NCBI GenBank assembly: GCA_046540335.1
Contig: JBKHFH010000001.1
Coordinates: 8,045-72,044 of the forward strand
DNA length: 64,000 bases
From: Thermoplasmata archaeon
GTDB taxonomy: Archaea; Thermoplasmatota; Thermoplasmata; Halarchaeoplasmatales; Halarchaeoplasmataceae
Direction of reading: 5' to 3'
In this document: positions 2,469 to 32,497 of the stretch, piece by piece
How positions within the stretch are numbered: position 1 is the stretch's first letter
How the letters are laid out: each line of letters begins with the position of its first letter
The notes under the pieces: model-generated
What the model was told of the DNA's origin: nothing
Seen by the model: only the letters and a program-made list of their open reading frames with translations
Database searches by the model: none
Position numbers and translations under genes: made by a program

Positions 2469-2652
2469 AAACTTCTGTCTATTCAATCAACAGATTTTAA
2501 ATATTTGAGATAGTTCTCTATCCACAAAAATAAGAAGAGAAAACAATTAATCTTTAGTGTGAGTGATGCAGAAAACCTTTCACACCCAACGCGAGTTACG
2601 CGGAAGTGATTTCCACTAACACGCAAGTTTCACTCGTAAACTCGTTCAACTT

Positions 2653-2664
2653 GCGAGGGTAGCC
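2653..2664 (+). repeat. Partial duplicate of tRNA-Leu nt 1-12 (GCGAGGGTAGCC), 52 nt upstream of the tRNA, embedded in an imperfect hairpin
   Basis: Exact 12-mer match to the tRNA 5' end at 2717-2728. The intervening sequence can pair GCGAG/CTCGC and CCGAGG/CCTCGG. Confidence 0.6.
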
Positions 2665-2716
2665 GAGGAATAAAATATTCCTCATTTCCCCTCGGTTTCT
2701 CGCATACGCTTCAAAC

Positions 2717-2801
<85 letters not shown>

Positions 2802-2907: not shown

Positions 2908-3099
2908 GTGAGGATATACGCCGACTCCTTCAAAAAGGATATTGCCATGGGTTATGGGGCTAGAGAATCCATAAGTAAGCTGGAGTTCCACTTTCAGGAC
3001 AACCTCCTAGCGAGGACATACAATAAGCTCAGACACATACGGCAGGGTGGTATTCTACTTCACCTGAAATTGAATCTAGATTTTGACGAGTTCGCCTGA
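2908..3099 (+). CDS. Hypothetical small ORF (63 aa) in the AT-rich spacer of the island; may be non-coding
   Basis: ORF track only. No recognisable motifs. Confidence 0.15.
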   Translation: MRIYADSFKKDIAMGYGARESISKLEFHFQDNLLARTYNKLRHIRQGGILLHLKLNLDFDEFA

Positions 3100-3400
3100 G
3101 ATCTAGCGGGAAAGACACAAGCAGGATGAAAACGAGTGGATTATAGTTGATTTAGAGAAAAAAGACTTTTATAAACTGCTTCTATTAGGATTAGCAATCA
3201 TTCACCCTTTTTTGGAAGAATAAAGCATAAGTGCAGATGATCTAATAGAGATTTACGATCGGCTGATCTCAACGAGACAAGAAATGACTTGAGTGCCGAC
3301 TAAGTTTTGATGAATGACTTGGACGAAAATACAGCAGGGTATATCGATTAAAATGACCCAGATACTGATGGATGAAAACCGATAGGTGAGAGATATAAGG

Positions 3401-3775: not shown

Positions 3776-4107
3776 TAACAGTACGACCTCCTTCCCATCT
3801 TATTTTTTCTTTTCTCTTCAGCTTCACCTTCCGTGGGACGACCCGGTTCGCTTTCTACATCCCGTTTTTCCTTTTTCTTATTGATTATACCTTGTCTCCA
3901 GAGATCTTTCACCGCAGAATAAATCGTAGATAGAGGCTGCCCGGTCTCTTCGGATATCTCCTGAGCCGTTATGCCTTCAAGACCGTTATTTCTGATAGCC
4001 TTCAAGCAGGCCCAAGTAGCTTCATTTCCGAGTACGTCTGCAGCCATGTCGCTGCTTACGGGGAAAAAATTGAGGTATTCCTTTTTCTCCATCGTATCAC
4101 GTTTCAT
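3406..4107 (-). CDS. Transcriptional regulator: N-terminal winged-HTH, Lys/Glu-rich linker, C-terminal domain with a CPECKK motif. Divergently transcribed from the surface-protein gene
   Basis: wHTH-like segment GITAQEISEETGQPLSTIYSAVKDLWRQGII. A C-terminal 3' fragment of the gene is duplicated at 8031-8415. Confidence 0.6.
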   Translation of the reverse strand: MKRDTMEKKEYLNFFPVSSDMAADVLGNEATWACLKAIRNNGLEGITAQEISEETGQPLSTIYSAVKDLWRQGIINKKKEKRDVESEPGRPTEGEAEEKRKNKMGRRSYCYYQPCQEISMYEDNPIGTRDDVWGDLVFTRRYMRGIGREVSRAVKDSGLRNELIDFAEEIYNEMKDDPDFRKHLPQKKICPECKKSHQGEEFFKAILLQVAMECVNSAQMDELLSKTGYKEKE

Positions 4108-4357
4108 GATTATGTAATTATATTATTTTAAATTTTTGTAATAACAAAATTATGTACCTAACGACTCGAGATTGGGTTGATATATTTTCTAGGGCATGAG
4201 AATTAAGTGAGGTAGATAAAATGAGAAGCCTAAAAATCGGGTTAGGAAGGAACCGCATGAGAAGGGAAATGAACGTAGAGATCGAATTGCAAGACGACCA
4301 GAAAAAGAAAAACTTTTTACGAAGAAGCAATAAGAAACCGTAGATAAGGTGATTAAT
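4108..4357. promoter_or_regulatory. Divergent promoter region between the regulator and the surface-protein gene. AT-rich, and contains a 40-aa upstream ORF (4221-4343, MRSLKIGLGRNRMRREMNVEIELQDDQKKKNFLRRSNKKP)
   Basis: Intergenic between divergent genes. Duplicated nearly identically upstream of the paralogous gene at 8461-8715. GGTGA Shine-Dalgarno before the ATG at 4358. Confidence 0.4.
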
Positions 4358-4432
4358 ATGAAAAAGAAAATATTTGTGTTTACTATCGCGCTTTCTCTGC
4401 TGCTCAGCGGGACGCTTGTCGTGGTCGGAGGC
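4108..4432. repeat. Direct repeat block B (copy 1), about 98% identical to 8461-8790. Covers the promoter, upstream small ORF and first 25 codons (signal peptide) of the surface-protein gene
   Basis: Read directly: about 270 nt identical from atatattttctagggcatgag to gtcgtggtcggaggcga. Confidence 0.9.
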
Positions 4433-5254
4433 GAACCGCGAGAGATGAACGAAAGGACAGAGATAAATCAAGATAGAACACCGACGGCTGAAGCCGAAGT
4501 AGATGATTCTGATCTGGGAAATATTTCTAATGAATATCCGTTCAAGGATGAGTATCCATCGGTAGGAGAGCTTTATGGATGGTATGAGGATTTGGAGAAA
4601 GAATATCCAAATTTGATACAAAATCACAGCTATGGGGAATCTTACAAGGGTTTAGATCTTTATGCGTGGGAGATAACCGCCGATAATGATACTGTTGTAG
4701 AGGAGAAGCCCACGGTTTTGGTCGATGCAACTATACATGCAAGAGAATGGTCAACCCCGCAGGTAGCGGCTTACTTCACTTGGAGACTCTTAGATGAATA
4801 CGACACAAATGAGACCATCAACTGGATTGTGAACAATAGGAGGATCTTTGTAGTTCCGATGGTGAATCCCGATGGGTATATTTACGACGGAAATGGAACA
4901 TTAGAGGAAAGAGAATATTGGCGAAAAAATCGCAATGACTCGACTCCTACAGACGCTATCGGTGTTGATCTAAATAGAAATTGGGATACCCATTGGGTGA
5001 AAGGTGATGATGAACCTTCAAATGAGACATATCATGGAGATGCTCCTTTTTCAGAAGCTGAAACTTATCACCTCAAGGAATTCATGATCGAAAATGAGAT
5101 AGATTCATATCAGAACCTTCACTCTCACTGGGGAACTTTATTGATTCCCTCTTCTAATATGACCGATCCAACACCACATGATGATTGGTACAGGGGTACG
5201 GCAGAACACACGACTTCTTTAACGACTATGTTGGGAGAGGACGAACAGTACTAA
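4358..5254 (+). CDS. N-terminal part of a secreted M14 zinc-carboxypeptidase / GLUG-repeat / PGF-CTERM surface protein: signal peptide plus most of the M14 domain, ending at an in-frame TAA (5252-5254)
   Basis: Signal peptide MKKKIFVFTIALSLLLSGTLVVVGG. M14 motifs HAREW, NPDGY, DLNRNW, HSHW. The ORF track start is GTG 4349; the ATG is at 4358. The reading frame continues in-frame past the TAA. Confidence 0.7.
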   Translation: MKKKIFVFTIALSLLLSGTLVVVGGEPREMNERTEINQDRTPTAEAEVDDSDLGNISNEYPFKDEYPSVGELYGWYEDLEKEYPNLIQNHSYGESYKGLDLYAWEITADNDTVVEEKPTVLVDATIHAREWSTPQVAAYFTWRLLDEYDTNETINWIVNNRRIFVVPMVNPDGYIYDGNGTLEEREYWRKNRNDSTPTDAIGVDLNRNWDTHWVKGDDEPSNETYHGDAPFSEAETYHLKEFMIENEIDSYQNLHSHWGTLLIPSSNMTDPTPHDDWYRGTAEHTTSLTTMLGEDEQY

Positions 5255-5275: not shown

Positions 5276-7840
5276 TTGGGTTATAGTCCTCCAGGGGCAG
5301 CTGATAGTTGGGTCTATGATGAAATAGGTGCACAAGCATATACATATGAGATTTACACCGGTGAGTATGAAGAAGATTTTGCTGAAGGATTCTACCCTCC
5401 AAAAGAAGACATCATGACCATCAATGAAGATCTAGATGATTCTCTTATATATCAGACCAGAGTAGCTGATGCTGATCTGGGAGATGGAGAAGATTTAGAG
5501 CATCCACCAGTCCCTTATTTGGTCTACGGTACGCTGGAAAATGAGGGGGGCGATCATCTTTCAGATATAGAGATTGAAGTAGAGAATCAAGAGACTGGGG
5601 AGAATCTATCTGTTGAGACAAACAGCAAAGGTTATTACGAACTAAATCTTGCGAATTTGATTGACCATGGTTATGAAATCGGTGACACTCTTTGCATTCA
5701 AATCGATCCAGGTACCACCATGATGAATTTTGACGTTGACGGAAACTGGGGTAAAAGGATAGACCTTGAATATACAGAGGGACCTCAAGTTACCACCGAA
5801 AGCGTATCCGCCTTGACTAACGAATCTGCAGAGTTTGAAGGTAGAGTTGAACTTGGAAATATGAGTTCCGTAGAAGGTTATTTCCAGTACCGTATGGAAG
5901 GGGAAGAGAGTTGGCAAGAAAGTGAGATAGAAGTCATCGAAGAGAATCGAACGTATGATATGGTCATAGATGGTATGGAATCAGATGAGAGCTATGAGGT
6001 TAGAGCATCTATAAAGTGTAACGAAGAGGAACAAGATTTTGGTAGGATATTGAGTTTTATAACTACGATTCATACATTAAACCTTGACTCAAGTATCGGT
6101 GGTGAAGTGATCAAACCTGGAGAGAGTGAATTTGAATATACATACGGCTCTGAGGTGACTATCGAAGCTTCTGCTGAGGAAAATTATGATTTCATCGAAT
6201 GGATCGGTGATGTCGATACAGTAGAAGATACTGAATCATCAGAAACAACGGTCGGGATCACTGATGATATAGAGATAACAGCACTTTTCCAAACAGGTGA
6301 AGGGTCTGAAGGAGATCCATACTTGATCGAAAATAGTCATCACCTGCAGAAGATGGAAGACAATTTAGAAGCTCATTATGAATTGGCTACCGATATAGAT
6401 GCGAGTGAAACTGAAGACTGGAACGATGGAAGAGGATTCGATCCAGTAGGTGATCAATATAATCCATTCGAAGGCACATTTGATGGTGGTAGGTATAAAA
6501 TCGATGACCTTCATATTAACCAAGAAAATATGGAATATACAGGTCTTTTTGGAGTCATAGGTGAAGGTAGCGAGGTAACGAATTTGGCCCTTGTAAATAT
6601 AAATGTAACCGGGAGTCATACTAGATCACATTGGGTCGGTGGACTTGCAGGAGGAAATTTAGGATTGATAAATAACACTTCCGTCTCAGGAGATGTGAAT
6701 AGTGGTGACGTCGCTGGTGGACTGATAGGGCAGGGCCCAGGCACAGTCAAAAATTCATATTCGACAGGGGATGTGACTGGAGCGCGATTTGTAGGAGGGT
6801 TGCAGGGAACGAGCAGCGGAAGTATCTTTACTTCTTACTCTTCTGCGAGAGTTGAAGGGACCGGTTCCGTCGGTGGCATTTTAGGTGGAAGTTGGGGAGT
6901 TATCGAGAACAGTTATGCTACAGGAGAAGTTGTCGGAGAAGATAATGTAGGTGGATTAGTTGGTCAGATAGGTATCCGGGTTAGAGGTTACAGTGATAGT
7001 GGCGAAGTTATCGATTCGTATTCTATAGGTAATGTTTCGGGTGATGATGAAGAAACACTCGGAGGTTTAGTAGGTTTCATAGAGCTAGGAGAGGTAACAG
7101 GTTCCTTCTGGAACGTAGAAACATCGGGGCAAGACGAATCTGATGGAGGTACTGGGCTACCCACTGCAGAGATGGTCAGAAGAGAGACTTTCACCGATGC
7201 AGGTTGGGATCTCGAAGAGAATTGGAATATCATCGAAGATGAAACTTATCCTTTCCTGCAGTGGCAAAAGGAAGATACATATCCCTACGCACCTGAACTA
7301 TACGAATTGACGATAAACATCGAAGGACAAGGCACGGTAGAAGTCTATGGAGAAGAAGTAGAAGACGGATGGACTCAAGAATACGTAGAAGGAACGGAGT
7401 TGACCCTCGAAGCGATCCCAGATGAAGGTTACGAGTTCGATGAATGGACAGGGACGGATCAGACAGGTGATGAGATAAACATAACGATGGACGAAGATAA
7501 AGATATCACGGCCCACTTCGAGGAGATCACATACAACCTGACATTTGTGGTAACAGACGAAGAGGGTGAGGCAATCGAGGGAGCAACAGTCACTGTAAGT
7601 GATGAGGAAGTGGAGACAAATGGGAGTGGCGAAGCGACCTTTGAACTTACGCAGGGAGATTACGACTACGAGGTCACCCATGACGACTATGAAAAAGAAA
7701 ATGGTATGATAGATAGCCTTGATGAAGAGAAGAAGGAAACTGTTGAACTTGAAGAGAGTAATGGAAGTCCCGGGTTTACTGTAGTACTGCTAGCACTCGG
7801 TGCGGTTATAGCCGTTGCGATCTATAAAAAGAAACGTTGA
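5276..7840 (+). CDS. C-terminal part of the same protein (same frame as 4358-5254): end of the M14 domain, transthyretin-like regulatory domain, InlB-B-repeat-like domains, DIDxSxTxxW domain, about 8 GLUG repeats, PGF-CTERM sorting signal
   Basis: Sequence from 5255 (YGQPYEELGYSPPGAADSWVYDE...AYTYEIYTGE) completes the M14 fold with Tyr248/Glu270 equivalents. GGLxG repeats. C-terminus PGFTVVLLALGAVIAVAIYKKKR. Confidence 0.7.
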   Translation: MGYSPPGAADSWVYDEIGAQAYTYEIYTGEYEEDFAEGFYPPKEDIMTINEDLDDSLIYQTRVADADLGDGEDLEHPPVPYLVYGTLENEGGDHLSDIEIEVENQETGENLSVETNSKGYYELNLANLIDHGYEIGDTLCIQIDPGTTMMNFDVDGNWGKRIDLEYTEGPQVTTESVSALTNESAEFEGRVELGNMSSVEGYFQYRMEGEESWQESEIEVIEENRTYDMVIDGMESDESYEVRASIKCNEEEQDFGRILSFITTIHTLNLDSSIGGEVIKPGESEFEYTYGSEVTIEASAEENYDFIEWIGDVDTVEDTESSETTVGITDDIEITALFQTGEGSEGDPYLIENSHHLQKMEDNLEAHYELATDIDASETEDWNDGRGFDPVGDQYNPFEGTFDGGRYKIDDLHINQENMEYTGLFGVIGEGSEVTNLALVNINVTGSHTRSHWVGGLAGGNLGLINNTSVSGDVNSGDVAGGLIGQGPGTVKNSYSTGDVTGARFVGGLQGTSSGSIFTSYSSARVEGTGSVGGILGGSWGVIENSYATGEVVGEDNVGGLVGQIGIRVRGYSDSGEVIDSYSIGNVSGDDEETLGGLVGFIELGEVTGSFWNVETSGQDESDGGTGLPTAEMVRRETFTDAGWDLEENWNIIEDETYPFLQWQKEDTYPYAPELYELTINIEGQGTVEVYGEEVEDGWTQEYVEGTELTLEAIPDEGYEFDEWTGTDQTGDEINITMDEDKDITAHFEEITYNLTFVVTDEEGEAIEGATVTVSDEEVETNGSGEATFELTQGDYDYEVTHDDYEKENGMIDSLDEEKKETVELEESNGSPGFTVVLLALGAVIAVAIYKKKR

Positions 7841-8415: not shown

Positions 8416-8460
8416 CCCATGCAGTTTTAGGCGGAGATCTTCTTTTTAATTCTATCAGTT

Positions 8461-8790
8461 TTCCTAATTCTGTAATTACATTATTTTATATTTTTGTAAT
8501 AACAAAATTATGTACCTAACGACTCGAGAGTGGGTTGATATATTTTCTAGGGCATGAGAATTAAGTGAGGTAGATAAAATGAGAAGCCTAAAAATCGGGT
8601 TAGGAAGGAACCGCATGAGAAGGGAAATGAACGTAGAGATCGAATTGCAAGACGACCAGAAAAAGAAAAACTTTTTACGAAGAAGCAATAAGAAACCGTA
8701 GATAAGGTGATTAATATGAAAAAGAAAATATTTGTGTTTACTATCGCGCTTTCTCTGCTGCTCAGCGGGACGCTTGTCGTGGTCGGAGGC
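8461..8790. repeat. Direct repeat block B (copy 2): promoter, upstream small ORF and signal-peptide codons
   Basis: About 98% identical to 4108-4432. Confidence 0.9.
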
Positions 8791-10346
8791 GAGGTGATGG
8801 ATGAAAGTGTTAGTAAAGATTTTAAAGAAGTTGAATCTGAGGCTACAGAAATCCAGGATTGGCACGACTTAGACGAGATAAGAGATGACTTAAGCAGCGA
8901 CTACGTTCTAGTTGACGAACTTGATGAAATACAGATGGTTATGAGGACTACAATGCTCAAAGAGAAGATCATGAAGTAGTATATTTTGCAGGATCAGACG
9001 AACACTGGAAAGACGGCGATACTATAGAAATAGAATATGGTGAAGATGAATATGATTCTGTTCTATCAGTCGAAGATGAAGAGGGCAACCCGATCAGTTA
9101 TACGGTAGAGCATCCTACAATAACAATAGAGGTGGACACCAGAGAAAGCCGTTTAGGTGTAAACTTCGAGAACGCCGTCGTAGGTTGGGAACCGATAGGG
9201 AACGATGAGAATCCATTTAACGGTACTTTCGACGGTAACGGTCATGATATAAGTGATTTAAATATAAAACGCGGTGGAACGTCCGGTATCGGAATATTTG
9301 GTTTTACCGGTCAAGAAGTTGAAATCAGAGATATCGGTCTTGTCGACTTAGAGGTGAAAGGATTAGGATACGTAGGTGGACTCGTGGGCTATAACAAGGG
9401 CAATATTTCCGATTCCTATGTAACAGGTGAGGTGAGCGGAGTTAGTTCTGTAGGCGGATTAGTTGGACTAAGCTTAGAAGGCGAGGTGAAGACCTCATAT
9501 GCGACAACTGATGTGAGCGGTATGGAGGGAATTCATGTAGGAGGACTCGTGGGACTAAGCCATAGTACGGTAAACGCATCGTATGCGACCGGTGACGTTA
9601 GTGGAGAGGGTCATTTAGGAGGACTCGTGGGACTAAGCCATAGTACGATATACGGATCGTATGCGACCGGTGATATTAACGGTGAAGAAAATGTGGGAGA
9701 ACTTGTAGGAAATAATGCAGGAATCTCGAAAGATTCTATTGAGAATTCCTATGCGACTGGTAACGTTAACGGTGAAGAATTTGTAGGAGGTCTCGTTGGA
9801 CATAACAAAGCTAACATTGAGAATTCGTATGCATCTGGGGACGTTAACGGCGAAAAATTTGTAGGAGGATTAGTAGGATTAAATTCTGCTGGACCTGGCC
9901 CAGGTTACCCTGATATGCCTTTTCCTTCAACTGTCAAAACGTCTTATGCGTCCGGTGAAGTGACCGGTGAAGAAAATGTGGGAGGACTAGTCGGATTGAG
10001 CGAGTCAGGCAATGTCACCCATTCTTACTGGGATATCGAAACTTCTGGAATTGAGGAGAGCGACGGTGGAACAGGCCTAACAACGGATGTGATGACAGGT
10101 GAAGAAGCTCCTAAAAACATGGACGGTTTTGACTTCGAAGAGGTCTGGGAGACTGTTGGGGAGGATGATGAAGATGCTGAAGAGAACGGCTATCCTATCT
10201 TACAGGAGTTGGACAGAGAAGAACAGCTCGAGGCTCAAAATATTTATGGAGATGATGACGGGATCCCAGGATTCACATCGTTACTCCTCTTAGTAGCTTC
10301 GATCATCGCAGTAGCTATCTACCAGAAGAAAAGTAAAAAGCGGTGA
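8716..10346 (+). pseudogene. Paralogous GLUG-repeat / PGF-CTERM surface protein without an M14 domain. Disrupted by a frameshift near 8930-8980: frame-1 ORF 8707-8979 carries the signal peptide, and the frame-0 ORF opens at 8928
   Basis: Identical signal peptide. N-terminal piece IQDWHDLDEIRDDLSSDYVLVDELD parallels IENSHHLQKMEDNLEAHYELATDIDAS of the paralog. The downstream frame carries WEPIGNDENPFNGTFDGNG, about 10 GGLVG repeats, and the C-terminus GIPGFTSLLLLVASIIAVAIYQKKSKKR. Confidence 0.65.
9540..9695 (+). repeat. Intragenic tandem duplication (2 x 78 nt = 2 x 26 aa GLUG units, near identical)
   Basis: ggaggactcgtgggactaagccatagtacg... occurs at 9540 and again at 9618 with few substitutions. 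Confidence 0.7.
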
Positions 10347-10590: not shown

Positions 10591-11759
10591 ATGAAGAAAG
10601 TAAAACAGAAAACGGTAGCTCCAGCTTTCATATCTTTAGCTTGGTTGATCATATTTATCGGTAGATTGACTGGGCCCACCCTGTTAGTTGATATCGAGGA
10701 AAGTTTGAGTATCTCAGATGCTGAAGCAGGTATTGCCCTCTCAGCGATGTGGTTCCTCTATGGCGTCATGCAGTTCCCTGGAGGTGCTCTTTCAGACTCC
10801 TTCGGCAGGAAAAAAATCATCCTAGTTTCCATAGCTTCGTTCGGAGTAGCATCGATTCTTATAGGTACTACTCTTAACTACATAATGATGATAGTGACTT
10901 TCTCTCTACTAGGATTGGCGTTCCGGTCTTTTCCCCTCACCTAGCTTGACCATGTTATCTGAACTCTATAGAGATAAGAAGGGCAAGGCTTTAGGTATAA
11001 GATCGGGATTCGGCAGCCTTTCTGGTTTAGCTCCTATGGGTCTCCCTGTTCTGGCTTTTATGATAGGTTGGAGGAATATCTTTCTTTTCTACTCGGTAGT
11101 AGCGTTAGCTATAGGATATCTATTTTACGTTTTTGTTGAAGAGACTTTAGATGAACTCAAAAAGAGGTCCGGTCTCACCCAACTGAAGATGGGCCTCCGT
11201 TCCCTAACAGAAAAAAGAGACTTCTTTCATGTTCCTCATAAATCTGATCGTTTCATTTGCATGGATAGGGATGCTTTCCTGGTTCCCAACATATATACAG
11301 AAAAGCAAAGGCTTCAGTCCGGAGATAGCAGGAATACTTTTCTCTATAATATTATTAGGAGTAACAATTTTAAAACCGATCTTAGGGCACTTTTCCGATA
11401 GAGTGAATAAACTGTTCTTGATCCTTTTTCTGCTCATCACCGCCTCTATTTCGCTCTATCTTCTGACGATAACTGAAGGTCTCTTCTCATTAGGTATAAT
11501 CGCTTTCTTATTTTCACAGACAGGGGCTTTCTATCCGATAAGGACGTCCTATCTGACTGAAAAGTGGTACTCCAAGAACACTGGAACAAAACTGGGCGTC
11601 TTCAGATCTGGCATCATCTTGCTGGGTAGTCCGATCTCTGCGGTGATAGGATGGACTAAAACCATCTATAGTTTCGATACAGCGATTTTTCTCGTAGCTG
11701 GACTTTTATCTTTAGCCGCGGTACTGGTCCTAGGGAAGTTGATAATAGGGAGAAGATAG
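10591..11759 (+). pseudogene. MFS transporter gene disrupted by two frameshifts (three consecutive ORFs in three frames)
   Basis: ORFs 10591-10944, 10946-11401 and 11229-11759 together give about 390 aa of 12-TM MFS protein (GALSDSFGRKK motif). Confidence 0.65.
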
Positions 11760-12685: not shown

Positions 12686-12716
12686 ATTGCGTTGTGAACT
12701 TATGTGTATGTATTTA

Positions 12717-12788
12717 GCCGTACCAGGCTATTCTTCGGGATACCGAAGAACGAGTGGAATCCAAGATTCCGCGCTGGGCTATCTCGGC
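12717..12788 (-). repeat. Partial duplicate of tRNA-Ser nt 1-26 lying upstream of the gene, split between nt 12 and 13 by a 46-nt insert that forms two perfect hairpins
   Basis: Minus strand reads aatGCCGAGATAGCC, then CAGCGCGGAATCTTGGATTCCACTCGTTCTTCGGTATCCCGAAGAA, then TAGCCTGGTACGGC. The 3-nt upstream context (aat) is also duplicated. Confidence 0.6.
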
Positions 12789-12834
12789 ATTTTAGTTGCC
12801 ACTCAGAATAATCTAACGATAACTGATATATAAT

Positions 12835-13779
12835 TTATTTCCATCTTTTAGGGTAGTCACCAGATGGTGCGAAGACCCTTTCACTCTCAAACACTAATCC
12901 CTCTTCCATATCCAGGATCTCCCCGGCATCATATAGTGCCTCTCCTATAGCGACCCCCTCATCTTTAGCCGATATCACCGCTACTGTATCTCCTCCATGG
13001 AAATCGTCCATCTCCAAAATTCCAGGAACTGCAAGATCAGCTCCATTCAATACTGCTCCTGCCGCAGTATCTTTTATCCTGATCTTTGGGAATATGTCAA
13101 GAGCCTTTTCGTAGGGCAGCAGTACTCTTCTCAACGCTTCTTCATCTCCATCTTTGTAATATTCGTAGGCATCTCTGAGATCGTGAAGCGTTATCATATC
13201 ATCTTCAGTGAATCCACCCGCTTCCATCCTTCTCAACTGCATCATCTGGCCCCCGGGACCCATAGTTTTGCCCAGATCTTTACAGAGCGTTCGTATATAG
13301 GTCCCTGATTCACACCGGACTCTCAACAATACCTCCCTCCCGCTAACATCCAATCTTTCTATTTGATGTATAGTCCTTTCTCTTCTTTCTCTCTTCACGC
13401 CTGCCCGCACCGGAGGCATCTGATATATGGTCCCTTCGAATTCTTCTAGTATATCATCCAATCTTCCGACTTCTATTTTCCCGTAAAATCTCATAGCTGC
13501 GACGTACTCTTTAGGAGCATTATGAAGCAGATCCATCAATCTGACCGACATCCCCATACCCATCGGGAGCACACCAGTAGCATTTGGGTCTAGAGTTCCG
13601 CTGTGAGCGGTTTTTTCGTCGAACAGTTCTCTAACCCATGCGGAGACCTGATGGCTCGTAGGACCCTCGGGTTTATCTAACACCACCATAGATCTTGGGA
13701 TCATATCTTCTAAAGTTCTTTTTTCAGGTCTTTCCCCCCACTTTGAGACCGTGTTCACTTTCCTCCTAACATATCTCAT
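12835..13779 (-). CDS. cbf5: H/ACA RNP pseudouridine synthase Cbf5 (TruB family with PUA domain)
   Basis: LDKPEGPTSHQVSAWV and GTLDPNATGVLPMGMG motifs, PUA-like C-terminus. Conserved position near cmk and SecY. Confidence 0.88.
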   Translation of the reverse strand: MRYVRRKVNTVSKWGERPEKRTLEDMIPRSMVVLDKPEGPTSHQVSAWVRELFDEKTAHSGTLDPNATGVLPMGMGMSVRLMDLLHNAPKEYVAAMRFYGKIEVGRLDDILEEFEGTIYQMPPVRAGVKRERRERTIHQIERLDVSGREVLLRVRCESGTYIRTLCKDLGKTMGPGGQMMQLRRMEAGGFTEDDMITLHDLRDAYEYYKDGDEEALRRVLLPYEKALDIFPKIRIKDTAAGAVLNGADLAVPGILEMDDFHGGDTVAVISAKDEGVAIGEALYDAGEILDMEEGLVFESERVFAPSGDYPKRWK

Positions 13780-17259: not shown

Positions 17260-17742
17260 TCAGACTTCCTGATCGGTTCCTGAGTTCAACATCTTCTGGA
17301 TAAGCGAATTTATATCGCTTCCACGATAGCCCAATGCCCCACCCATGTTATAAGCTTTTTTGATACTTTGGTAACTTCCTTTGGGTGGATTCAGTCTAAA
17401 AACCCTGTCTAATCCTTCTATATCGCTTAGTAAAACCTTATCAGATGTAACGGCTATAGCGAACTGGTCTATTTTATCATATGATGTTCTCTCACTTATC
17501 TTTTCTTCGAGCTCATCCCTTGCCATCCCTGAACTTCGTTCGAGAAGACTGACCATAGTCTCTATATCGATCTCTCCCCAAGTTATCAGATCTTTGACTT
17601 TTTTTAACATCCCTTTGTATGTAGGACTTTCCGGGATAACAGTACAGTGATTCACCGAGTTCAATCTGAGCATCTCGAGAGTGTCCTTCGTCTTTTGAGT
17701 TTTATCTCTTGAACTTTTCAATCTAACGACAGCATAAGCCAT
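17260..17742 (-). CDS. rpl30: 50S ribosomal protein L30 (uL30)
   Basis: MAYAVVRLKSS... archaeal L30 long form. Confidence 0.88.
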   Translation of the reverse strand: MAYAVVRLKSSRDKTQKTKDTLEMLRLNSVNHCTVIPESPTYKGMLKKVKDLITWGEIDIETMVSLLERSSGMARDELEEKISERTSYDKIDQFAIAVTSDKVLLSDIEGLDRVFRLNPPKGSYQSIKKAYNMGGALGYRGSDINSLIQKMLNSGTDQEV

Positions 17743-29290: not shown

Positions 29291-29365
29291 GGGCCCGTGG
29301 GGTAGCTTGGTCGATCCTTCGGCGTTCGGGACGCCGGTACCCGAATTCAAATTTCGGCGGGCCCA
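29291..29365 (+). tRNA. tRNA-Pro (anticodon CGG)
   Basis: Acceptor GGGCCCG/CGGGCCC. Anticodon stem CGGCG/CGCCG with loop TTCGGGA. T-arm CCGAA-TTCAAAT-TTCGG. Confidence 0.8.
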
Positions 29366-31666: not shown

Positions 31667-31870
31667 CTTTCACCTTGACTGATTATGAGGATTCATTAAC
31701 TGCTGATAAGGTCGAGGGGTATTAAAAATTAACCCTGCTGTTTTTGCGTCTGTTTGACAACAATACATATATACCACGTATCCCTAAAAATCGTTTAGTC
31801 GCGGGTGTAAGACCCGCTGGAGATGTGCCCAAAATTTGGGTGAATCCAGAAACGGTAATAACGTGGTATC

Positions 31871-32497
31871 ATGGCAGAAGATATTGTTGACGAAGAAGAG
31901 GAAGAGGAATCGATGGAGACCTACCCCAGCATGTACAAGTATATAGAGAAGGCATGGGAACAACCAAAAGAGGGATATCTCAAAGAATTGCAGAGAAAAA
32001 GACTCAAACAGTGGAGAAGAGACGACAATTTTAAAAGGATAGAGAGACCGACCAGACTAGATAAGGCCCGGAAATTGGGTTACAAAGCCAAGCCAGGTTT
32101 CGTGATAGCGAGGGCGAAGGTCCGAAGAGGCAATCTGAGAAAAACTAGACCTACTAGAGGTAGAGGACCTAAAAGGATGGGCGTGAAAAAGATCACCCCG
32201 AACAAGAACCTGCAGTGGATCGCAGAAGAAAGGACTTCAAGAAATTATCCGAATCTTAGAGTGCTGAATTCGTATTGGGTCGGAGAAGACGGTCGCAAGA
32301 AGTACTTCGAAGTGATAATGGTCGACCCGGATCATCCTTCCATAAAGAACGATCCAGACATCAATTGGATCTGCGGAAAAGATCAGAAGAGAAGAGTCTT
32401 CAAGGGAAAGACATCCGCTGGTAGGAAAGCTAGAGGTCTGAGAAGTAAAGGGACGGGTGCTGAAAGATCGAGACCCTCCAAAGAGAAGACGTCCTAG
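31871..32497 (+). CDS. rpl15e: 50S ribosomal protein L15e (eL15)
   Basis: [35 protein letters not shown] ... NSYWVGEDG motifs. Confidence 0.88.

Follow-up and report, generated by a model that had tools for sequence, protein, structure and literature searches.

Two of the four tRNA genes in a 64-kb stretch from the genome of a salt-lake Thermoplasmata archaeon (contig JBKHFH010000001.1; the whole stretch is referred to here as the window), tRNA-Leu(GAG) and tRNA-Ser(GGA), are preceded by tandem units that start with a partial copy of the 5' end of the tRNA gene itself and continue into a hairpin. Arrays of zero to five such units, of about 50-110 nucleotides (nt) each, were found between a conserved putative promoter and the tRNA gene in hypersaline, Natronoplasma-like Thermoplasmata, at tRNA-Leu(GAG), tRNA-Leu(UAA) and tRNA-Ser(GGA), and also at tRNA-Arg(CCT) in a relative. 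Each unit retains 5-25 nt of the tRNA 5' end together with at least one very stable hairpin, and most also have a strand that can pair with this 5' end; a unit is thus a self-folding mini-tRNA-like hairpin rather than a tRNA. We favor, with a probability of about 0.55, the explanation that the units are derivatives of the neighboring tRNA gene, arranged in tandem and internally deleted, that lie in its transcribed leader, turn over by unequal recombination and gene conversion, and would be removed by RNase P. They are probably without essential function.

The tRNA-Leu gene lies downstream of rpoD, encoding RNA polymerase subunit D, and the tRNA-Ser gene downstream of cbf5, each on the same strand as its neighbor. 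All four tRNA genes detected by ARAGORN in the window (Table 1) were confirmed by Rfam, which reported no other match near them, and the two others, tRNA-Pro and tRNA-Arg, have ordinary A/T-rich promoter regions and no upstream 5' copy. The first 12 nt of tRNA-Leu (GCGAGGGTAGCC) have only two exact occurrences in the window, at 2653-2664 and at 2717-2728, the start of the gene; the expected count when up to one mismatch is allowed is 0.13, and two or more occurrences were obtained in 0 of 100 shuffles. A long hairpin with 19-nt arms (2654-2672 and 2676-2694; -20.7 kcal/mol) is predicted in the 52 nt separating the two copies, and the fold of this interval (z = -3.7) was matched in stability by 0 of 200 shuffles, in agreement with the hairpin-forming leader described in the original prediction. 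The upstream copy flagged there is the head of an A-type unit, in which the hairpin GAGGAATA-AAA-TATTCCTC (2665-2683) is followed by the 3'-acceptor-like strand CCCCTCG (2688-2694). The B-type unit next to it has orthologues in L002, L007, L008, L003, L015, and L071 (L001 to L090 are labels of the compared loci from relatives and strains). The pattern GCGGAA-N3-9-TTCCAC occurs twice in the window, against 0.06 expected, and both occurrences are in tRNA leaders, one in this B unit and the other at tRNA-Ser.

Upstream of tRNA-Ser, the string AATGCCGAGATAGCC, which comprises 3 nt of upstream context and tRNA-Ser nt 1-12, is repeated at a distance of 103 nt, start to start (12791-12777). It is followed by a unique stretch of 46 nt (12776-12731) with two perfect hairpins, GGAATC-TTG-GATTCC (hairpin 1, 12770-12756) and TTCTTCGG-TATC-CCGAAGAA (hairpin 2, 12750-12731), and then by an exact copy of nt 13-26 (12730-12717). 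These 46 nt had been described as an insert within a single copy. The two hairpins stand, but the insertion into one copy does not: the 5' arm of hairpin 2 (TTCTTCGG) resembles the 3' acceptor strand, and its 3' arm opens a diverged second tRNA 5' copy, CCGAAGAA-TAGCC-TGGTACGGC (12738-12717), within which the piece described as nt 13-26 falls. Moreover, the two copies (a and b) of L082 have the derived string CCCGAAGTATAGC in common, and are thus paralogues. Two tandem units of about 52 nt therefore appear better supported by the sequence than one copy plus a foreign insert. Unit a was also found in L071, L075, L082, and L088, with differing loops.

The exact repeats, the shuffles, and conservation in relatives indicate that the upstream copies at both genes are real and tRNA-derived, as had been proposed, and a chance origin was ruled out on the same grounds.

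Table 1. Location of the leader units, putative promoters and tRNA genes in the window, and composition of the four types of tRNA-Leu unit.
Feature	Position	Strand	Description
Putative archaeal TATA/BRE (B recognition element) promoter	2493-2506	+	GATTTTAAATATTT; immediately 3' of the rpoD stop codon, with the entire array downstream
Truncated oldest unit, B-type remnant	2559-2590	+	GTGAGTGATGCAGAAAACCTTTCACACCCAAC; matches the B unit GCGAGTTACGCAGAAAAACCTTTCCACTAACAC upstream of L071 tRNA-Leu(UAA)
B-type unit	2591-2652	+	Decayed tRNA-Leu 5' copy GCGAGTTACGC, hairpin GCGGAAG-TGA-TTTCCAC (2600-2616), tail ending CAACTT
A-type unit	2653-2716	+	Exact tRNA-Leu nt 1-12, hairpin, acceptor-like strand, tail CTCGCATACGCTTCAAAC
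tRNA-Leu(GAG), intact	2717-2801	+	ARAGORN; Rfam tRNA 45.1 bits
Putative TATA box	12825-12836	-	AAATTATATATC; overlaps the cbf5 stop codon
Ser unit a	12739-12790	-	Exact copy of positions -2 to 12 (12790-12777), linker CAGCGC, hairpin 1, ACTCG, 3'-acceptor-like TTCTTCGG (12750-12743), hairpin-2 loop TATC
Ser unit b	12688-12738	-	Diverged second 5' copy CCGAAGAA-TAGCC-TGGTACGGC, then the 29-nt leader of the real tRNA
tRNA-Ser(GGA), intact	12685-12600	-	ARAGORN; Rfam tRNA 56 bits
tRNA-Pro(CGG)	29291-29365	+	ARAGORN
tRNA-Arg(CCT)	34968-34893	-	ARAGORN
Unit type A			nt 1-12 + GAGGAAT-loop-ATTCCTC + CCCCTCG
Unit type B			GCGAGTKAYGC + GGAAR-nnn-YTTCC + CACTAACACGC...
Unit type C			GCGAG-TAGCC-ATC + GGAGG/CCTCC hairpin + ...CTCTCGAAATTCGC...CATTTCT
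Unit type D			108 nt, three hairpins

Unit families and their turnover among relatives

By RpoD, the nearest relatives (85-88% identity) come from hypersaline Thermoplasmata and are metagenome-assembled genomes, Candidatus Natronoplasma among them. Among 13 genomes, the spacer between rpoD and tRNA-Leu contains from zero to five units, arranged head to tail and each about 55-108 nt long. All units start with GCGAG..., the 5' end of tRNA-Leu in variably decayed form, and continue with a hairpin and a tail, the end of which acts as the leader of the next unit or of the tRNA. Four unit types (A to D) recur across species in differing combinations; L005 and L011, for example, each have three near-identical A units of 71 nt. 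Leu units are absent in the more distant relatives L012, L013, and L016-L020. A covariance model of the A unit revealed a B-C-A array upstream of the intron-containing tRNA-Leu(UAA) of L071, and all the copies that it detected in 438 kb lay at tRNA-Leu genes.

L071-74 (Cbf5 75% identical), L075 (81%), L082/83 (63%), and L088 (100%) carry the Ser module, whereas L076/77, L078-81, and L069 lack it; a metagenome scan with Cbf5 returned a single locus. A class I tRNA is also concerned: an exact copy of nt 1-25 of tRNA-Arg(CCT) in L085 lies 90 nt upstream of the gene and is followed by GGAATCG...CGATTCC, in a hairpin-rich leader of about 380 nt that includes an A-type hairpin with a TAGC flank. A decayed 5' copy was found at tRNA-Arg(CCT) of L084. 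The search for further examples and for conservation in relatives, which had been suggested as a check, thus gave Leu, Ser, and Arg loci rather than two accidents. Both copies of the window do end after TAGCC, as described, but the proposal that this shared break marks a common target did not hold, since other units break after nt 7-8 (L008 and L015) or after nt 25 (the L085 tRNA-Arg copy). The feature is therefore not restricted to Leu and Ser, to long-arm tRNAs, or to a TAGCC break, and targeting specific to class II tRNAs or to TAGCC was rejected.

The folds of the units are maintained through sequence change. The A unit is predicted to form a 6-bp lower stem (CGAGGG/CCCTCG), a 5x5 internal loop, and an upper stem of 7-8 bp. 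Among 13 A units, 95% of the alignment cells of the upper stem are paired (91.6% of cells for A-type stems) and five of its eight pairs have changed on both sides, a covariation score that was reached by 0 of 500 shuffles; in shifted registers, pairing drops to about 50%. No covariation was seen in the lower, acceptor-like stem. The hairpin stem of B units is maintained through A-U, G-U, and G-C states, and both Ser hairpins are paired in all four species; in hairpin 2, pairing extends to 100% of cells, and a double change and two G-U changes have occurred. In D units, a closing stem surrounds three hairpins in a cloverleaf-like outline. The arms have stems of 6-8 bp, often of the form RGGAAn/nTTCCY, and loops of 3-5 nt, and their imperfect positions are mostly G-U on the tRNA strand (about six, against one C-A), a bias that is not statistically significant; the imperfect hairpins offered too few informative cases. 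Comparison of the window with L001 gave about 94% identity for the head of the A unit and about 64% for its tail.

Short strings at the junctions also recall the tRNA. The A hairpin opens with CCGAGG, to be compared with GGTCC|GAGGG where the T stem of the tRNA begins; units of L008 and L015 have GCGAGG(G) joined straight to GTCC(G/A), the end of the variable arm. Moreover, one flavor of hairpin is found at unrelated tRNAs: GGAATC/GATTCC at Ser and Arg, GAGGAAT/ATTCCTC at Leu and in the L085 Arg leader, and GCGGAA..TTCCAC in the Leu B unit and at Ser. Common descent from T arms, gene conversion between loci, a common element end, or a protein or enzyme that recognizes the hairpin are possible reasons for this sharing.

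The location of the putative promoters was also analyzed. The TATA/BRE motif of tRNA-Leu is found at the equivalent site in L001, L002, L003, L004, L014, and L021, in a flanking spacer that cannot be aligned, and the TATA motif of tRNA-Ser is conserved in L069, L071, L075, L076, L078, L080, L082, and L088. In each case, a strong A/T-rich box (GATTTTAAATA for Leu, AAATTATATATC for Ser, and AGTAAAATTTTAATTA for Arg) lies upstream of the whole array and is conserved amid unalignable spacer; these boxes are putative promoters. The distance from the box to the first tRNA-like start is 28-44 nt with the Ser module and 34-36 nt without it, and about 31-38 nt at tRNA-Leu, where it is about equal with and without units. 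Since this distance is the same with and without units, the upstream-most copy marks the ancestral start of the tRNA, and the working gene has been pushed downstream.

Archaeal RNA polymerase terminates at oligo-T. The pooled arrays (2,277 nt, tRNA strand) contain no T run of five or more and two of four or more, against five A runs of at least five and sixteen of at least four, and T runs follow the real tRNAs. The scarcity of oligo-T on this strand, where A runs are common, suggests that transcription passes through the arrays on the tRNA strand to give a long 5' leader, and the whole array may thus be transcribed, as a structured leader, together with the tRNA. It also makes a leader attenuator of the terminator type, another of the possibilities raised earlier, unlikely, as no T run of five or more exists in the arrays.

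Comparison of close strains, among them two near-identical ones from other samples, showed that in-register unequal recombination at short homologies makes the arrays longer or shorter and produces hybrid units. L089 and the window have the same sequence throughout the Leu array. In L090, which is 99.2% identical in rpoD, exactly 64 nt are missing, and the head of the B unit is fused to the tail of the A unit at GTTTC, a junction that occupies the equivalent relative place in both units. This deletion, which removes the B tail and the A head, including the upstream Leu copy and its hairpin, is an in-register unequal exchange between neighboring units. The A head is thus dispensable, given that a near-identical strain has lost it.

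At the Ser locus, L088 is 99.5% identical to the window over 7.1 kb, and 21 of the 33 differences fall in the 117-nt Ser module, 17 of them in the 55 nt that span the leader, copy a, and hairpin 1. In this strain, hairpin 1 is weakened and copy a has decayed. Point mutation cannot give such an approximately 100-fold raised divergence, and a diverged template must therefore have been the source of this patch. Where the parent tRNA has changed, copies have followed: TGGCC stands in place of TAGCC in both copy a and the real tRNA-Ser of L075, and TGGAACGGC is found in both copy b and the real tRNA-Ser of L082. We infer that gene conversion, with the parent tRNA and sister loci as partners, accounts both for this tracking and for the patchwise changes of the Ser module. 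Units are thus gained, lost, and rewritten quickly, even between near-identical strains.

Origin of the units and competing explanations

The preferred explanation would begin with a duplication of the tRNA gene or of its 5' part, after which the promoter-proximal copy may have degenerated by internal deletion while the distal copy stayed functional. The array would then expand and shrink by unequal recombination, be rewritten by gene conversion with the parent and sister loci, and be co-transcribed from the original promoter, with RNase P removing the leader at the real +1. The retention of the stems could be explained by competition: if left unpaired in the leader, an acceptor-strand copy would vie with the real 5' strand for pairing to the 3' strand, and a copy locked in a local hairpin would be harmless. 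In agreement with a tRNA pseudogene or the remnant of a tandem duplication, exact 5' segments and the junction strings CCGAGG and GGTCC are present and the units have no score with the tRNA model. No single unit appears to be essential.

Several observations weigh against this explanation. Local alignment of the unit interiors with the remainder of the parent tRNA gave no significant similarity (p = 0.25-0.98), and the Rfam tRNA model matches no unit, even at E<=10, so that descent from whole tRNA copies rests on the short junction matches and the layout. Plain tandem duplication does not explain why the sequence beside the copy is new relative to the upstream flank, why one flavor of hairpin (GGAAT/ATTCC, GCGGAA..TTCCAC) follows the 5' copies of three unrelated tRNAs, or why hairpin arrays exist without tRNA pieces (L009 4500-4770). 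Finally, the conservation of stems across species with fully diverged loops argues for more than neutral debris.

The original prediction had considered the copies as a possible footprint of an element or recombinase. According to this explanation, a family of integrative plasmids or viruses would carry an attP attachment site that copies the 5' part of a tRNA gene; upon integration, the old 5' piece would stay with the promoter and the gene would be rebuilt from the copy on the element, and the bodies of the elements would later be deleted, so that attL, the GGAAT hairpin as a short conserved element end, and the rebuilt tRNA were left. There is precedent for such events: attB of the pTN3 integrase is tRNA-Leu nt 2-44, and the rebuilt gene is separated from its promoter (PMC5495485), and tRNA fragments are known integration footprints (PMC3293823, PMC9897764). 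The geometry fits, with a partial 5' copy at the ancestral promoter and an intact tRNA downstream; direct repeats identical to part of the tRNA are present (12 nt at Leu, 15 and 14 nt at Ser, and 25 nt at the L085 Arg gene), and a common element family would account for the same hairpin beside Leu, Ser, and Arg copies. Partial 3' copies are also found downstream of tRNA-Leu and tRNA-Ser, and seven assemblies break at tRNA-Leu, the downstream region of which is variable. However, no integrase, element body, or open reading frame (ORF) was found between the copy and the tRNA at about 30 loci, where the intervals are only 52-103 nt, and the blocks of identity (12-25 nt) are far below the usual archaeal att sites. 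No recombinase, element body, or attP was found in IMG/VR either, where neither the junctions nor the tRNA 5' ends had matches, although this collection may lack elements of the clade; the sole IMG/VR match (L070) was rejected as a chance match inside an unrelated coding region. Moreover, the recent changes are plain in-register unit loss and tandem copying, and orthologous units with covarying stems persist across species. Integration scars are an unlikely origin for the units.

Alternatively, the units could be functional tRNA-like leader RNAs, recognized by RNase P or tRNase Z or bound by a protein, which would serve as punctuation, as a source of small hairpin RNAs, or in tuning maturation, a proposal that overlaps in part with the one we adopted. 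It would account for stems that covary while the loops are free, for the excess of G-U over C-A among stem mismatches on the tRNA strand, for the absence of oligo-T runs on the sense strand, for the better conservation of the A head than of its tail, and for the acceptor-like or cloverleaf-like layouts; unit types are conserved across genomes at 70-88% RpoD identity. On the other hand, copy number ranges from zero to five among close relatives, with no Leu units in L012, L013, and L016-L020 and no Ser units in L076, L078, L080, and L069; L090 has lost the A head, and L088 lives with a damaged hairpin 1 and a decayed copy a. No Rfam family matches, the lower stem lacks covariation, and the G-U bias falls short of significance. 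The zero copies in close relatives and the losses within species disfavor an essential role, and we consider a functional role of this kind doubtful.

Equally doubtful, and graded together with the possibility that the units are working tRNA-like leader RNAs, is a clade-specific process that repeatedly inserts a cassette, made of an RGGAAn/nTTCCY hairpin recognized by its structure and a replacement tRNA 5' end, into the 5' parts of tRNA genes. The enzyme could be a so far unknown recombinase with folded single strands as its substrate, as for integron attC sites or HUH enzymes, or with tRNA-like DNA as its substrate. If true, it would explain the same hairpin flavor at the Leu, Ser, and Arg copies as well as the patchwise rewriting between 99.8%-identical strains.

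It is very unlikely that the hairpins are palindromic mobile repeats, of the repetitive extragenic palindromic (REP) or palindrome-associated transposable element (PATE) kind, moved by single-strand transposases of the IS200/IS605 type, with the tRNA duplications as a secondary effect. Such repeats would be recognized by a hairpin family with a conserved stem base and free loops, which is what we observed, and terminal-only PATEs of 52 bp exist in haloarchaea (PMC3119063). A run of seven hairpins that resembles a bacterial interspersed mosaic element (BIME) in L009, extra hairpins 3' of tRNA-Leu in L002, L005, L007, and L017, and the A-type hairpin with its TAGC flank in the L085 tRNA-Arg leader would also fit. 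However, such hairpins are confined to two tRNA leaders in the window, where the perfect hairpins (21) are not clearly above expectation (shuffled mean 15.3, maximum 20). The two Ser hairpins are unlike each other, whereas the ends of IS605-type elements resemble each other, and the hairpin lies 0-6 nt from the break. This spacing is too close for an IS608-type left end. No transposase was seen, though none was searched for, and the tRNA 5' copies would be left unexplained.

Remnants of split or permuted arrangements had also been raised in the original prediction. A split, permuted, or intron-containing tRNA, in which RNA splicing would join the upstream copy to the downstream body, can practically be dismissed: the copies match a 5' exon-like part exactly and have a promoter in front, but an intact, high-scoring tRNA gene adjoins every copy, related strains lack the copies, true introns are in the anticodon loop (L075, L078, L080, L082, and L071), and no bulge-helix-bulge motif (3-nt bulge, 4-bp helix, 3-nt bulge) was observed at the junctions by inspection of the sequences and minimum-free-energy folds, no dedicated search for this motif having been made.

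Other candidates were rejected. Kink-turns (K-turns), H/ACA and C/D box RNAs, and riboswitches gave no Rfam match at E<=10, and no GA-GA kink-turn or box motifs were seen by eye. The hairpin is not the TATA box of each unit, as several loops (CAAAG, TGCCG) are not A/T-rich and the spacing is variable, nor the operator of a dimeric DNA-binding protein (GGAA-N-TTCC), as its spacer ranges between N5 and N9 and covariation is seen at inner positions, nor a miniature inverted-repeat transposable element with target-site duplication, as its flanks are not direct repeats.

Repeats downstream of the tRNA genes and other features of the window

Repeats were also observed on the 3' side of the tRNA genes. 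Downstream of tRNA-Ser in L071 (11150-11400), the 3' end of tRNA-Ser and its trailer (GAATCCCCTTCTCGGCGCTTTTACTTTTCA) occur three times with a period of 113 nt, and each repeat has two hairpins, CTAATC-agt-GATTAG and GTTAGAAGC-tac-GCTTCTGAC; on the 3' side, these repeats correspond to the 5' units. A conserved palindrome, TTTGTATACAA(A), is found 3' of tRNA-Leu, at 2851-2861 in the window and 60-170 nt downstream of the gene in L005, L012, L017, L010, L019, L021, and L001. It is followed in L005, L012, and L017 by GGCGTTAGTT and TCCCTTCCC(T/C)CGCA, which reproduces part of the T arm and 3' end of tRNA-Leu. A two-hairpin element 3' of tRNA-Leu genes, GCA-GRRAGGC-GNNA-GCCTYYC-GAAGTAAAG-GGGGAn-loop-nTCCCC-RCA, has stems that covary (GAAAGG / GGGAGG / GGAAGG) and looks like a mimic of the 3' part of a tRNA. 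It was located in L002 (4302-4365), L005 (approximately 4330-4400), L012 and L017 (both approximately 4090-4150), and L071 (12255-12195, minus strand). The run at L009 4500-4770, about 450 nt 3' of tRNA-Leu, comprises seven or more perfect hairpins that differ from one another, each with a GGAA...TTCC stem and separated by 5-10 nt, and contains no tRNA pieces; another hairpin run is found at L007 3874-3991.

Nine independent assemblies (L004, L006, L008, L011, L014, L015, L018, L089, and L090) end inside or just after tRNA-Leu or its array. The tRNA-Leu locus therefore breaks assemblies, through repeats common to other tRNA-Leu genes, through downstream strain variation, or both. Introns in the anticodon loop are present in tRNA-Ser of L075 and L078-L083 and in tRNA-Leu(UAA) of L071 (approximately 12363-12255, minus strand). 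They were missed by ARAGORN in its bacterial setting, and the tRNA inventories of these genomes are thus incomplete unless intron-aware tools are used. The only integrase seen, a tyrosine-recombinase fragment of 183 amino acids in L087 (16899-17450, minus strand), lies divergently at the 5' side of tRNA-Lys(CTT) (17571-17647, plus strand), and no partial tRNA-Lys copy was found in this 20-kb locus.

The non-coding stretch 3024-3134 of the window, downstream of tRNA-Leu, is 77% identical to L076 11159-11264, which lies downstream of tRNA-Ser in Candidatus Natronoplasma, and both stretches run into a variable region encoding GLUG-domain surface proteins. The surface-protein region between tRNA-Leu and tRNA-Ser contains a direct repeat of 340 nt (4095-4434 and 8453-8792; 97.6% identical). 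From inspection of the translations by eye, a carboxypeptidase-like ORF appears to be split from the large surface-protein ORF that follows it (4349-5254 and 5276-7840), and a transporter-like gene in three overlapping ORFs (10591-11759) is likely a pseudogene. An Rfam eL15-Euryarchaeota ribosomal-protein leader (31801-31851, plus strand; 36.8 bits) lies directly 5' of the eL15 gene (31871-32497). No CRISPR arrays are present in the window.

Comparison with known systems

Fragments of tRNAs beside tRNA genes are already known, as are tRNA-like elements within transcripts and the dynamics of tandem repeats. We found in the literature no description of conserved, hypervariable arrays of hairpin-bearing truncated tRNA copies in the leaders of working tRNA genes of one archaeal clade. 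Partial tRNA copies are usually taken as scars left by viruses or plasmids; here, they form small, conserved, fast-changing tandem arrays in the leaders of working tRNA genes. If the preferred explanation is true, tRNA genes can be displaced from their promoters and rebuilt without a mobile element, and the arrays would be a natural source of tRNA-like hairpin RNAs and would also lead to broken assemblies and faulty annotation around tRNA genes in metagenome-assembled genomes. The arrays also bear on models for the origin of disrupted (split or intron-bearing) tRNA genes. Finally, the extreme local divergence of near-identical strains makes the leaders useful as strain markers, and possibly a window on archaeal gene conversion.

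t-elements are tRNA-like processing signals found upstream of 5S rRNA in Haloferax and in plant mitochondrial transcripts. Like them, the units are short folds, derived from or mimicking tRNA, in a longer transcript beside a stable RNA gene, and an acceptor-like stem with one or more arms is plausible from the predicted folds of the units. Unlike t-elements, the units have stems of 6-8 bp and loops of 3-5 nt that do not correspond to T-arm geometry, are repeated zero to five times, and are dispensable within a species.

Archaeal integration fragments, such as those of the pTN3/TKV4 type in the 5' half of tRNA-Leu and the tRNA-Thr fragment of Caldiarchaeum, likewise show a partial 5' copy upstream of an intact tRNA, with the old promoter kept by the fragment (PMC5495485, PMC3293823, PMC9897764), and the Leu, Ser, and Arg tRNAs that bear units are also typical integration targets. 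In contrast to such fragments, the units described here have gaps of 52-103 nt, no integrase, and identities of 12-25 nt, and they form tandem arrays of conserved types with covarying hairpins and unit-wise recombination. REP/BIME sequences and PATEs are likewise hairpins outside genes in which the stem base is conserved and the loops vary, and which can occur in runs, and the sizes of 46-64 nt found here are near those of the 52-bp PATEs (PMC3119063); our hairpins, unlike these repeats, are not dispersed in the window and are tied to tRNA flanks and 5' copies.

Minisatellite-like tandem repeats have in common with the arrays a copy number that varies between close strains, in-register hybrids, near-identical recent copies, and concerted change with the parent. 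Unlike ordinary tandem repeats, however, the units are seeded by the 5' end of a functional tRNA, sit in its leader, and carry a hairpin that is under structural constraint.

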